Sequence record: MK373774.1
Length of the DNA stretch: 64,000 nucleotides
Reading direction: 5' to 3' (one strand)
From: Escherichia phage vB_EcoM_WFL6982
Positions 1,158 to 4,615 of the stretch are shown here, piece by piece (positions within the stretch are counted from its first letter, which is position 1; every line of letters begins with the position of its first letter). The position numbers were made by a program, and so were the translations under genes. The notes beneath the pieces were generated by a model, which saw only the letters and a program-made list of their open reading frames with translations, did not search any database and was not told the origin of the DNA.

Positions 1158-2114
1158 TTATTTGAAAGGTTTTACCATATGAAAGTTTTGTTTGAAACGC
1201 TTGACGTAATCGTCGTGTCCTAAGCTTTGGTACATACTTACTACTTTGCTATAATTTTCCCAAGCGAACTCACGGAACCATCCTGATGTGATTGATGTAC
1301 AGACCTTTTCAAGGGCCATCATAAAACTATCACGTGGATGGATTTTAAAGTCGTTAGGAATCTGTGAACGTTCAAGAGCTAATACACAAGCTTCTTCATA
1401 TACACCGGCTAATTTAACCATTTCTGGTAATGATTCGAACTTCTCGCGTGATGTCATAACTTCTGAGCCTTCTTTCATATAAAACTTATAAGCAGGCTGG
1501 TCAGTTAGTGCAATGGCTTCATGGATAGTATCATGGTCATACGTATAGATGTCATCTTTAAAGAACGCACTTTTAGAAGTGTCAAGAACTGGGTGAGCAT
1601 AATTCAAGGTTTCTTTCTGGCGTTTCAGCATAATTTCAGTAAGTTCATCGTTCAGTGTAACACCTTTACCACGAAGATACTGAATATGGTTCATAGTCTT
1701 TAAAAAGAATGGATTATTTTTCTTGAAACGATGAGACATCTTAATTGCAAGACATATCTCAGGAGTTGCCCAGTAAAACCCGTTCAAACGGTCTTTAGTC
1801 AAATTTTTCTTGGCGTATTTTAAAAGGTCATAAGAAGACGTGAAATCTTCAGGAGTGAGTTCACCGACTAATTCACGGACATTAGTGATTGCCGGAACAA
1901 TATATGCTTCAAAATGAGTTTCGCGTCCATTATGGAAGCATTTGAAAACTTGGACATCAGGGTTATCTTGGTGAACATATACACCCATCATTTGATTTTT
2001 GAATGTATTCCAAGAACCTTGGTCCGCAATAAAGTCCCAATCACTATTTTTAATAGCGCTAGAATCAATAAGACCGTGATAGTGAAGTGCACGAGAACCA
2101 ATAACTAACATCAT
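1158..2114 (-). CDS. hypothetical protein, possible minimal nucleotidyltransferase fold
   Basis: 318-aa ORF with GAGGAAA SD; N-terminal IGSRAL...SDWDFIAD resembles the hG[GS]...DxD polymerase-beta-like motif (spacing longer than typical). Confidence 0.6.
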   Translation of the reverse strand: MMLVIGSRALHYHGLIDSSAIKNSDWDFIADQGSWNTFKNQMMGVYVHQDNPDVQVFKCFHNGRETHFEAYIVPAITNVRELVGELTPEDFTSSYDLLKYAKKNLTKDRLNGFYWATPEICLAIKMSHRFKKNNPFFLKTMNHIQYLRGKGVTLNDELTEIMLKRQKETLNYAHPVLDTSKSAFFKDDIYTYDHDTIHEAIALTDQPAYKFYMKEGSEVMTSREKFESLPEMVKLAGVYEEACVLALERSQIPNDFKIHPRDSFMMALEKVCTSITSGWFREFAWENYSKVVSMYQSLGHDDYVKRFKQNFHMVKPFK

Positions 2115-2142: not shown

Positions 2143-2382
2143 TTAAATTTCACGACATGCGATATTATATTCATCCCAGAGGTCATCATGTGAAGCCTCT
2201 ACCAATGGAACGATTGTACCGTTTATGTCTTCATTATAAGGGCAAATTGTACAGTGCGCATCTTCGAATCGGATGCCTTTGTGTTCAGATTTTTTATAAC
2301 GCATATCGAATATCTTTGCAAACTTTTCACGAGTAATGGTTTTACCAACCACTTTGGTTCCGATACTTTCGTAATAAATCAT
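2143..2382 (-). CDS. hypothetical protein
   Basis: ORF with GGAG SD before MIYYES start; early promoter immediately upstream. Confidence 0.5.
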   Translation of the reverse strand: MIYYESIGTKVVGKTITREKFAKIFDMRYKKSEHKGIRFEDAHCTICPYNEDINGTIVPLVEASHDDLWDEYNIACREI

Positions 2383-2397
2383 TGTGGACTCCATTTG

Positions 2398-2445
2398 GTT
2401 TGATAGGACTACTATAACATAGCCCTATCTTGTTGTAAACTGTTT
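2398..2445 (-). promoter_or_regulatory. T4-type early promoter with inverted repeat
   Basis: Minus strand GTTTAC-N18-TATAGT-AGTCCTATCAA. Confidence 0.55.
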
Positions 2446-2642
2446 TAGCAAGAATAACTAGATGATACCCAGCCTTGAACAGTGATACTATTGTGGGATA
2501 ATGAGATCGCGTCCTGGAGATTCAGACCTGCGTTATCTTCAATCCATAATGTAACTTCTTCGCGTTCTTCTGTTGCAATTTGGAACAGGTTTTCCAGAGC
2601 AGCTACTGTCGTACGTACAGCACAATCTAATTCACGAGACAT
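2445..2642 (-). CDS. small protein, C-terminal GWVSSSxxC family member
   Basis: 65 aa; C-terminus QGWVSSSYSC shared with two neighbouring ORFs. Confidence 0.5.
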   Translation of the reverse strand: MSRELDCAVRTTVAALENLFQIATEEREEVTLWIEDNAGLNLQDAISLSHNSITVQGWVSSSYSC

Positions 2643-2651
2643 ATTGTTTCC

Positions 2652-2924
2652 TTAGCAAGTGTGAGAAGATGCGACCCAACCACCAGTTTCGAGGCTCAGG
2701 TTGTAGTCGTATTGGTAAACGTCAGCCCATTCAGCATAGCCGTTTTTTGTACAACGTTCAAGATCGGCTTTAAGATGTCCGGGTGAATGATAGGTTCCAC
2801 CCATACCATAAGCTGGATACAAGACGAATGTTGTGTTTTGTTTATCAGCAATTTCTTTGGCAGCCTCAATAGCTGCATAAATTTTTGCTACAGCTTCAGC
2901 CAGTTCGGTTTGTTCTTTAGACAT
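2652..2924 (-). CDS. small protein, C-terminal GWVSSSxxC family member
   Basis: 90 aa; KEIADK..YGMGGTYHSPG and C-terminal GGWVASSHTC paralogous to 2934-3239. Confidence 0.55.
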   Translation of the reverse strand: MSKEQTELAEAVAKIYAAIEAAKEIADKQNTTFVLYPAYGMGGTYHSPGHLKADLERCTKNGYAEWADVYQYDYNLSLETGGWVASSHTC

Positions 2925-2933
2925 AATGATTCC

Positions 2934-3239
2934 TTAGCACAACGCAGAAGACGAAACCCAAGCACCTTCAGTAATAACGTAACCATTACCTTCACGCTTA
3001 ACATCGCCACCATTATTTTCAATTTCATCTTTCATCCACTGGGATACGATTTCACCCTTAGGATAATAAGTACGACCGCTACCATAATCACCTACAGAAA
3101 ATGATACGGCATATTGGTCTGCGATCTTTGTTGCTTCTTCTTCGATACGTTCAGCTTGATTCAGAAGTTTATAAATTGCATCTGAAGCGGATTTGGCATC
3201 ATTAAACTCTGGTACTTTAATTTCAATAATCTTACTCAT
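2934..3239 (-). CDS. small protein, C-terminal GWVSSSxxC family member
   Basis: 101 aa; TKIADQ..YGSGRTYYPKG and C-terminal GAWVSSSALC. Confidence 0.55.
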   Translation of the reverse strand: MSKIIEIKVPEFNDAKSASDAIYKLLNQAERIEEEATKIADQYAVSFSVGDYGSGRTYYPKGEIVSQWMKDEIENNGGDVKREGNGYVITEGAWVSSSALC

Positions 3240-3595
3240 TTTCTACATTCCTTAATAAAGTTTTCGATTGTTTCATTTTCACGTCTAGCTAGGAGTTCAT
3301 TATAACTAATCATTTGAGAAGCGTAAACCTTTTTATTTTTCTTGTTATGGTTTATAAAATCGTAGTAAAAATAGACTACAGTACAAAAGGATGCGATGGA
3401 TGCAAAGGCTTGGGTATACCGTAAGTCCTGCCATTGGTCTGTGAATCCACCAGTGTTCCCTATAAATCCTAACACAACGCCATCAATAAGAAATCCAACT
3501 AATCCAAAGGCAAATCCCATGCCGGCGCTCATGATAAAAATTAAAATATTCTCACCAAGAGAAGGCCATACGGTTAAGAGTTGAGGCTTTTGCAT
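3236..3595 (-). CDS. small membrane protein
   Basis: Hydrophobic stretch MSAGMGFAFGLVGFLIDGVVLGFIG in the translation; overlaps neighbours by a few nt. Confidence 0.5.
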   Translation of the reverse strand: MQKPQLLTVWPSLGENILIFIMSAGMGFAFGLVGFLIDGVVLGFIGNTGGFTDQWQDLRYTQAFASIASFCTVVYFYYDFINHNKKNKKVYASQMISYNELLARRENETIENFIKECRK

Positions 3596-3933
3596 CTTAT
3601 TTCCTTAACGAATTCCATAGCTTCTTCATATTCATACTTTTTAACAGCTTCATCATACTGAGCTTGGGCTTTTGCGCACTGAACTTTCCACTCGCGAACT
3701 CGAGCTCTGTGATGACGGCCTTGGTGCCAATATCCTGCCCAATTAATAGGCATTAATAAAAATGGTACAATAAGTGGGGCGACGAACATTAATGAAAATG
3801 CTGCATCAGACGATATAACTTTACTAGAATCTAAAACAGCTCCTATAATCATAAAGATTAAAAATGCTAAAGCTAAAATAGGGCCAAATAGTACTTCGTT
3901 TGGGATTAATTTACGTTTGTATTCGTATGCCAA
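3574..3933 (-). CDS. small membrane protein (start uncertain, possibly TTG)
   Basis: Translation has YKRK followed by a hydrophobic helix; first codon in frame is TTG just after a hairpin plus T-tract; no ATG until codon 28. Confidence 0.4.
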   Translation of the reverse strand: MAYEYKRKLIPNEVLFGPILALAFLIFMIIGAVLDSSKVISSDAAFSLMFVAPLIVPFLLMPINWAGYWHQGRHHRARVREWKVQCAKAQAQYDEAVKKYEYEEAMEFVKEIRCKSLNS

Positions 3934-3960: not shown

Positions 3961-4010
3961 TGCCTTGCGGCAACCTTGTCGGGGTTCCACCTGCTAAGGC
4001 AAGTGTTTGT

Positions 4011-4102
4011 ACGAAACGCCGGGATTTGAACCCGGTTATTAAGTAGTTGACGCTACTCAATATTTTTAAAAGGCCATATCTCGACCATATCCGAACGTTC
4101 CG
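4011..4102 (-). ncRNA. tRNA-like structured RNA candidate (not a canonical tRNA)
   Basis: Minus strand has a canonical T-arm CCGGG-TTCAAAT-CCCGG and a 7-bp acceptor-like pairing 92 nt apart, but D and anticodon arms do not fold canonically. Confidence 0.25.
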
Positions 4103-4270
4103 TCAAAAACGCTACTCGGCTTACGGCAAAGATATTTCCTCGAATCGATAATTCTGTGCGCCGTTTCTGCTGTGATGTAAGGGGATATTAACAAATCGTA
4201 AAGATTTATTAAGACCAGTCCTTACTCAGGGAACATCAGTCCGACGACTTACCGGTAGCGACCCGGCTTC

Positions 4271-4615
4271 TTATTTTGACATATCATCAATTTGCTCTCG
4301 ACGCCGACGCCATAGATTAATCGCTTCATTAACACATTCGGCGTTTGGTATATGACGGCAATAATATAATGATTCGCGTTTCTGGAACCGATGTTGCAAC
4401 GGGATTTCGTTTAAAAGGTCTTTACGGTCAAAGTATTCAAAACTAGTTAACCCAGAACGATTTTTAAGAAACTTCCAATGTCCGAATTCATTTTGAAAAT
4501 AGACATAATCAGCATGCTGATACAGCGAATTAATTAACCTATCGGAAATAACTGTTTCACGTTCGTTAAAATAAAATGTTAAGTCATGAACTACCAGATA
4601 AATATTGCCTTTCAT
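4271..4615 (-). CDS. hypothetical protein
   Basis: ORF taken from internal Met MKGNIYLVVHD so that it does not overlap tRNA-Arg. Confidence 0.5.
   Translation of the reverse strand: MKGNIYLVVHDLTFYFNERETVISDRLINSLYQHADYVYFQNEFGHWKFLKNRSGLTSFEYFDRKDLLNEIPLQHRFQKRESLYYCRHIPNAECVNEAINLWRRRREQIDDMSK

Follow-up and report, generated by a model that had tools for sequence, protein, structure and literature searches.

Nucleotidyltransferases of the MenT/AbiEii type are known from bacteria, where they put tRNAs out of action as toxins or as effectors of abortive infection. Among them, the MenT toxins attach nucleotides to the 3' ends of tRNAs, and MenT1 is blocked by a helical antitoxin of 68 amino acids (aa) (PMC10435456). 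In the HEPN/MNT systems (HepT/MntA, type VII toxin–antitoxin), a minimal nucleotidyltransferase covalently nucleotidylylates a specific residue of a protein encoded next to it (PMC7641770, PMC11586414). Here we describe three small open reading frames (ORFs) in a 64,000-nucleotide (nt) stretch of Escherichia phage vB_EcoM_WFL6982 (MK373774.1), which as a whole is referred to as the window. The three ORFs belong to a large phage family of small acidic proteins that share a C-terminal motif with a conserved cysteine, and the genes of this family show a near-obligate, form-specific and two-way genomic coupling to the gene of a MenT/AbiEii-like nucleotidyltransferase, which in the window lies close by on the same strand.

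A family of small phage proteins with a common C-terminal tail

An earlier note on this DNA had drawn attention to three adjacent minus-strand ORFs of 65, 90 and 101 aa with similar C-terminal tails. We confirmed their positions as well as their endings, which are QGWVSSSYSC (65 aa), GGWVASSHTC (90 aa) and GAWVSSSALC (101 aa), each followed directly by TAA. All three are listed as hypothetical proteins in GenBank record MK373775.1 (vB_EcoM_WFK, Mosigvirus, RB69-like), the sequence of which is identical to the window (a window position is the MK373775.1 position minus 64000). The ORFs, the codons of their tail motifs and the gene of the predicted partner are as follows.

2934..3239, minus strand: Cys-tail paralog 1, 101 aa, with a long N-terminal helix, a GDYGSGRTYYPKG loop and the tail AWVSSSALC; phrog_899
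2652..2924, minus strand: Cys-tail paralog 2, 90 aa, with a AYGMGGTYHSPG loop and the tail GWVASSHTC; phrog_899
2445..2642, minus strand: Cys-tail paralog 3, 65 aa, with a different body, without the YGxGG loop, and with the tail GWVSSSYSC; phrog_4882
2937..2960, minus strand: codons of the tail motif WVSSSALC of paralog 1
2655..2678, minus strand: codons of the tail motif WVASSHTC of paralog 2
2448..2471, minus strand: codons of the tail motif WVSSSYSC of paralog 3
1158..2114, minus strand: predicted partner, a 318-aa protein with a nucleotidyltransferase fold (Pfam DUF7277 + DUF7275), long form with the KVCTS motif

Homology between the 90- and 101-aa proteins extends over some 70 residues (BLASTP E=5e-6), while the 65-aa protein resembles the other two via the tail only (BLASTP E ~1e-3); when the latter was compared with the main family using hhalign, just 13 tail columns aligned (probability 88%). 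Hidden Markov models (HMMs) from PHROGs matched the 101-aa (E=1.3e-22) and 90-aa (E=2.2e-18) proteins to phrog_899 and the 65-aa protein to phrog_4882 (E=7.9e-36). Paralog 2 is a member of the commonest subtype of the family, and homologs of the 101-aa and 65-aa proteins were found in 391 phage records, at one place per record, and in 251 phage records, respectively. In the type phage RB69, the ortholog of the 101-aa protein (2934-3239), ORF139c, is a truncated form of 71 aa that ends in ...SQWYEK and so lacks the tail; judged by its sequence, it looks like a natural knockout of one Cys-tail paralog.

To define the family, we searched 1.84 billion representative proteins with a profile built from the window paralogs and their first hits (E<=1e-3), which yielded 164 clusters at 50% identity. 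A word-indexed homolog search gave 7 and 14 matches, the method being weak for proteins so short. The tail is thus conserved well beyond this genome: 138 of 155 family members end exactly in W-x6-Cys, and in these 138 the tail reads G-G-W-[VIML]-[SA]-S-S-x-x-C, with the Trp, the Ser at position -5 and the Cys present in every one and the Ser at -4 in 135. The tail had been described as strictly Cys-ending, of which the conservation of the Cys stands, whereas its terminal position is not universal, as about 7% of the members carry one residue more. We defined a Cys-tail protein by a C-terminal W-x-[SAP]-S-[S]-x(0-3)-C, optionally followed by one residue; all three window proteins fit this pattern, and no other ORF of the 64-kb window carries the motif.

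Two further likenesses pointed out earlier, KEIADK/TKIADQ and YGxGxTY..PG in the 90- and 101-aa proteins, turned out to be family-wide features. The first corresponds to an EAExIADE motif within the long N-terminal helix, and the second to YGMGGTYYPxG, which is found in most members and reads GDYGSGRTYYPxG in the 101-aa type. Members are short and acidic (median length 88 aa, median isoelectric point (pI) 4.5, median net charge -8), and the tail Cys is the sole Cys in 74/155 of them. Extra internal copies of the motif occur in 19 of the 155, e.g. WLNSSCYGE...WYPSSC, and individual phages carry two to six tandem small ORFs that all end in W..SS(x0-2)C, as seen in JS98, PhiKpNIH-6, PG7, Aeromonas phage 25, Pseudomonas phage PsgM04F and Phapecoctavirus phiWec181. 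In tail-bearing proteins of 125-172 aa, no known N-terminal domain was found. With its internal copies, and as the only part that the 65-aa paralog has in common with the others, the tail acts like a portable short motif.

Conservation of the tail lies at the protein level and not in a repeated DNA element, as the earlier note had argued. Over 30 nt, the three tails share no more than 63-73% identity in their DNA, and among 122 distinct tails of the family the invariant Ser positions are encoded by all six Ser codons (TCN and AGY boxes) and the Cys by both TGC and TGT. This codon usage implies selection on the peptide rather than on a DNA element or a ribosome-binding site.

A match to an already characterised family, which would have spoken against a new family, did not appear. 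Pfam, NCBIfam and PADLOC scans of the three proteins gave nothing above noise, as did a Pfam scan of 113 members; PDB sequence and profile searches returned only designed helical proteins, which we regard as noise, and no solved fold matched the structural model. This confident AlphaFold2 (AF2) model of the 101-aa protein (predicted local distance difference test (pLDDT) 89.4, predicted template modelling score (pTM) 0.76) combines a 29-residue helix with a small sheet and a further, short helix. The tail proteins resemble none of the antitoxins MenA1, MenA/AbiEi and COG5340 in sequence or fold, and in the literature we found no description of the family, the tail motif or the pairing with a transferase.

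Several specific identities were considered and rejected. For a HEPN-type partner, there was no HEPN Pfam hit in the three proteins or the 113 members and no fold match. For a TusE/DsrC sulfur carrier, there was no Pfam or PDB profile hit, and only the position of the Cys is similar. A precursor of a ribosomally synthesized and post-translationally modified peptide (RiPP) or lanthipeptide with an aminovinyl-cysteine (AviCys) end was also discarded: no dehydratase, cyclase, LanD or radical-SAM gene lies nearby, in the window or in 12 annotated phage loci, and the tail proteins are predicted to be folded domains (AF2).

Regarding occurrence outside phages, an exact DNA probe for YGMGGTYY, which covers one subtype of the family, gave two chance matches in 185,579 bacterial and archaeal genomes, compared with 24 true loci in IMG/VR. 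Because of this result, the family is not evident in cellular genomes or prophages, and it is phage-only as far as the probe for this one subtype reaches.

Coupling to a nucleotidyltransferase gene and the surrounding genes

The earlier note had suggested a shared partner or modification for the three proteins, and the nucleotidyltransferase at 1158-2114 is now a concrete candidate for it on the basis of co-occurrence; that the two interact physically would go beyond this. We collected 80 IMG/VR loci with the long form of the transferase, each including 8 kb to either side. In these loci there are 206 tail ORFs, every one of which lies on the transferase strand and upstream of the transferase gene (median gap 858 bp, 98% within 3 kb), and none was found downstream or on the opposite strand. 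After apparent exceptions had been checked with an HMM, at least one tail gene was present in 79/80 loci, with one to six per locus. We further defined the family by the position of its genes, at most about 3 kb from a long-form DUF7277/DUF7275 transferase gene and on the same strand, an arrangement that the window shares with 79 of the 80 loci.

The coupling is specific to this form of the enzyme. In 58 control loci with the short form, which occurs in KVP40, Gordonia and Streptomyces phages and others, not one of 2057 same-strand ORFs carries the tail, and the same is true of 2194 opposite-strand ORFs in the transferase loci. As the motif is absent from all of these roughly 4250 control ORFs and restricted to three ORFs in the window, the similarity of the tails is not due to chance. 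The coupling also holds in the reverse direction. Starting from YGMGGTYY, the transferase was found downstream in 17 of the 24 IMG/VR loci; five further loci lie on contigs already among the transferase loci, and the last two have no downstream DNA. In every phage that we read, the tail genes stand next to a homolog of the 1158-2114 protein of about 300-320 aa.

The order of the genes is inverted in Xanthomonas phage BUDD (L010 3992-6246) and Stenotrophomonas phage Moby (L011 4001-5960), where the tail genes lie immediately downstream of the transferase gene; in BUDD, the first of them overlaps the transferase stop codon. Because both phages keep the tail genes beside the transferase, adjacency survives rearrangement. 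Transferase and tail genes occur together in Straboviridae, Phapecoctavirus, Otagovirus, Menderavirus and jumbo phages, and since the pair spans these groups, the association is not only inherited T4-like synteny. At the syntenic site of T4 neither tail genes nor transferase are present, and e.2 is found there instead.

The 318-aa protein has the features of a Pol-beta nucleotidyltransferase, i.e. the catalytic motif and the third acidic residue. G6, S7, D25 and D27, which make up the signature hG[GS]...DxD, are invariant (in alignments of 17 and 32 sequences), and E69, the third acidic residue, and R129 are invariant in long forms. In the helical C-domain, K125, H128, K139, H194-D195, H198, E240-E241, E248-R249 and T273 are invariant; K125-x-x-H128-R129 and H194-D195 in this domain are candidates for comparison with the C-terminal motifs III and IV of DUF1814. 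The fold is similar to that of solved MenT structures, there were no PDB sequence hits, and a Pfam scan at E<=1 returned DUF7275 and DUF7277 only and not the AbiEii/DUF1814 profile. With its intact catalytic motif the transferase is apparently active. RlaP (PF10127) was considered as an identity and rejected, as there was no hit at E<=1 and no adjoining RNA ligase in the window.

With the short form counted in, the enzyme family comprises 2425 homologs (E<=0.001) and is represented in 734 GenBank phage records. Some homologs bear the public names 'prohead assembly scaffold protein' or 'HNS-dependent expression A', which conflict with the fold and seem to be misannotations. Distant phages such as DSS3_VP1, Streptomyces phage Wakanda, Erwinia jumbo phage Hallingskeid and Gordonia phage Toniann have polynucleotide kinase (Pnk) or RNA ligase genes, or a tRNA array, no more than a few kb from the transferase gene. 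Such neighbours are a hint that the enzyme family as a whole may have a function connected with RNA or tRNA ends. The long form further contains C272 within the KVCTS motif (KVCTSITSGWFRE), which is Cys in 80/80 long forms and in 0/31 of the short forms where the motif was found. This residue is a weak lead for thiol chemistry with the tail Cys, weak because long and short forms are separate clades and DSS3_VP1 has the Cys and no tail gene within 4 kb.

On the minus strand, the order of transcription is the two membrane-protein genes, the 101-, 90- and 65-aa ORFs, an 83-aa ORF, the 318-aa ORF, nudE and lysozyme e. The tail genes had been placed upstream of the two membrane-protein genes, and this has to be reversed, because in the direction of transcription they lie downstream. 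The remaining features of the locus are the following.

2143..2394, minus strand: 83-aa ORF (phrog_3723), between the tail genes and the transferase gene
2411..2439, minus strand: match to a sigma-70-like promoter, TTTACA-17-TATAGT with TG, between paralog 3 and the 83-aa ORF; 10/12 consensus
3574-3933 and 3236-3595, minus strand: two 119-aa membrane proteins, homologs of T4 e.3/e.4

The homolog of the 83-aa ORF in JS98 is orf123, and by reading, no ORF like it stood out between tail genes and transferase in distant phages. Given the promoter match ahead of the 83-aa ORF, the transferase gene may have a transcript of its own as well; the match is a consensus match only, and the region as a whole has no more such matches than expected from shuffled sequence.

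The neighbours at 3236-3595 and 3574-3933 and T4 e.3/e.4/e.5 (L103 5958-7271) carry a second C-terminal motif, F-[IV]-x-E-C-[RK] (NFIKECRK, EFVKEIRCKSLNS, FVIDCRKIK, FVKECREY...), which occurs on membrane and soluble bodies and in T4-like loci is present in 48/1102 same-strand and 0/309 opposite-strand ORFs. By this motif, these proteins form another tail-defined paralog set in the region. A 'sulfurtransferase' label attached to the e.3-like membrane protein (e.g. in phage F31, L002 2145-2504, homolog of 3236-3595) is without Pfam or NCBIfam support and was rejected. Further along, 4010-4148 (minus strand) is a homolog of T4 rnaC (98.6% over 139 nt) and 4156-4274 (minus strand) a homolog of rnaD (87.5%); no Rfam family covers these RNAs. 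The GenBank coding sequences WFK_00131 (3911-4060) and WFK_00132 (4066-4194), both 'hypothetical protein', overlie the two homologs and are probably spurious.

Possible functions of the tail

We propose that the Cys-tail proteins and the co-encoded MenT/AbiEii-like nucleotidyltransferase form one functional module. In this model, the transferase would recognise and dock on the C-terminal tail and move a nucleotide, as nucleoside monophosphate (NMP), onto a serine or the cysteine of the tail, so that one enzyme could switch or mark a whole set of one to six divergent client proteins early in infection. That the tail is an acceptor or recognition motif for the transferase is the explanation we favour, tentatively and at somewhat less than even chances. 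We favour it because the tail is the sole feature common to otherwise unrelated bodies, because it can be duplicated within one protein, and because one enzyme accompanies one to six divergent carriers. Taken further, the model describes a phage post-translational tagging system, in which the MenT-like enzyme would covalently nucleotidylylate a W-x-S-S-x-x-Cys tag on one to six small effectors. Such a system would join a tag to a dedicated enzyme, as sortase and exosortase systems do, but would be cytoplasmic and nucleotide-based and would be used by lytic phages in host takeover or counter-defence; we give this extended version a substantial chance, somewhat below that of the model itself. 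A precedent for the mechanism is provided by MNT, which AMPylates its co-encoded HEPN partner (PMC7641770, PMC11586414).

Several points weigh against this proposal. The known enzymes of the MenT family act on tRNA 3' ends and not on proteins (PMC10435456). Among T4-like phages, some of the synteny reflects inheritance and not independent selection. The one long-form locus without an intact tail gene (L041) holds a tail-gene remnant only, and DSS3_VP1 has a KVCT-type enzyme and no tail ORF within 4 kb. In the AF2 model, W-V-S of the tail forms the last beta-strand (pLDDT ~84), followed by a helical turn that ends in the Cys, and a tail placed in this way would be no less suited to a structural role than to that of a flexible acceptor. 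Finally, the physical interaction, the tail as its contact site and the chemistry are what we infer.

In the strongest alternative, the nucleotidyltransferase would be directed at tRNA and the Cys-tail proteins would regulate or inhibit it as subunits, comparable to antitoxins or specificity factors, which we consider a real possibility that falls clearly short of being probable. The long acidic helix and the tail would fill the positively charged cleft for tRNA, which the tail would plug as a pseudo-substrate, and the paralogs would tune or time the enzyme. Such a role suits small acidic proteins (median net charge -8, median pI 4.5) with a helix of about 30 residues that contains EAExIADE, it is in line with the same tight linkage to the transferase, and the predicted placement of the tail is compatible with a plug and with an acceptor tail alike. 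However, a simple inhibitor leaves unexplained why there are one to six divergent paralogs per phage that have chiefly an invariant W-SS-C tail in common, and neither sequence nor fold resembles MenA1 or the COG5340 antitoxins. Moreover, toxin–antitoxin logic has no obvious place in a lytic phage, and in L041 the enzyme is accompanied by nothing more than the remnant of a tail gene.

Alternatively, the tail proteins could work independently of the transferase, as anti-defence proteins, nucleic-acid mimics or thiol carriers for metal, persulfide or disulfide, and be linked to it only as early accessory genes that share its regulation. Phage counter-defence proteins are typically small, acidic and early, and the tail proteins are small and acidic; the tail Cys, which is the only Cys in nearly half of the members, recalls the C-terminal Cys arm of the TusE/DsrC sulfur carriers. 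The prediction that the tail is part of the fold (AF2) is also in agreement with an independent function. We nevertheless consider this explanation unlikely, as the linkage is near absolute both ways, specific to one enzyme form, and kept after inversion of the gene order and across unrelated phages; in addition, neither DsrC/TusE nor any other family of metal or sulfur carriers showed similarity to the tail proteins.

A role of the tail as export or membrane-targeting signal, or as contact site for the membrane proteins at 3236-3933, a variant of ideas raised by the earlier note, appears highly improbable. Tail and membrane-protein genes are adjacent in the window genome, JS98 and PhiKpNIH-6, but T4 carries e.3/e.4, to which the membrane proteins are homologous (E=1e-20, 6e-44), with neither tail genes nor transferase at the locus, and Phapecoctavirus, Otagovirus, Xanthomonas and Aeromonas phages have tail genes without the membrane proteins. 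Export is further disfavoured because the proteins are small and acidic, show no signal peptide or N-terminal hydrophobic segment on reading of the sequence, and have the W-V-S of the tail in a predicted beta-strand.

Lastly, the idea that the tails are alike by chance or through an artefact of the nucleotide sequence, for instance a ribosome-binding or regulatory element that recurs where genes end, can be dismissed with near certainty: two of the three genes do end in ...TGCTAAGGA, which overlaps the Shine-Dalgarno sequence of the next gene, but no gene lies directly downstream of the third, the control ORFs lack the motif, and the low DNA identity together with the use of six Ser and two Cys codons across 122 tails already refutes it.

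Significance and comparison with known systems

T4-like and many other large lytic phages carry small early genes without known function, and three of these now form part of a defined family with a testable signature and a candidate enzyme partner. The module is widespread, with tail proteins in at least 164 clusters at 50% identity. A phage-borne MenT/AbiEii relative with dedicated partners could be a new counter-defence or host-takeover device or a new case of protein nucleotidylylation, and the invariant W, SS and C of the tail are immediate targets for mutagenesis. The pairing of the Cys-tail genes with the MenT-like gene suggests a new enzyme-plus-tagged-partner module.

In PHROGs, the three proteins are already members of groups, but these are split over phrog_899 and phrog_4882, both of 'unknown function', and make no mention of the tail motif or of a coupling to the transferase. 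Among functional systems, those nearest include MenAT1, composed of the MenT1 toxin and the 68-aa MenA1, and the wider MenT/AbiEii DUF1814 family. The phage enzyme has a similar fold, but it lacks membership in the corresponding sequence profiles, matching Pfam DUF7277/DUF7275 only, and it is accompanied by one to six W-SS-C-tailed partners unrelated to MenA1 or COG5340. Further differences from MenT/AbiEii are that it carries its own helical C-domain, which is large and extremely conserved (KVCTSITSGWFRE), and that it resides in lytic phages, whereas MenT belongs to bacterial toxin–antitoxin loci. The partner in HEPN/MNT systems is a HEPN RNase that is modified on Tyr in the Rx4-6H region, while the phage tail proteins have neither the HEPN motif nor the HEPN fold.

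With respect to the genomic pattern, LPXTG/sortase, PEP-CTERM/exosortase and GlyGly-CTERM/rhombosortase offer an analogy, and an analogy only, in that one enzyme gene accompanies many divergent proteins bearing a short terminal motif. There, transpeptidases cleave tags that serve as signals for sorting to the membrane or cell wall, whereas in the phages the tail proteins are acidic and cytoplasmic and go with a nucleotidyltransferase. The holo-acyl carrier protein (holo-ACP) synthases CitX/MdcG carry out a nucleotidyl-type transfer onto a Ser of the acidic, roughly 100-aa CitD/MdcC, which confers a thiol-bearing function; the phage pair has no sequence or structural match to them, and the likeness is conceptual. 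Taken together, neither the fold of the enzyme nor the concept of a transferase that has a small partner is new; what is new is a tail-defined, multi-copy partner family in lytic phages.

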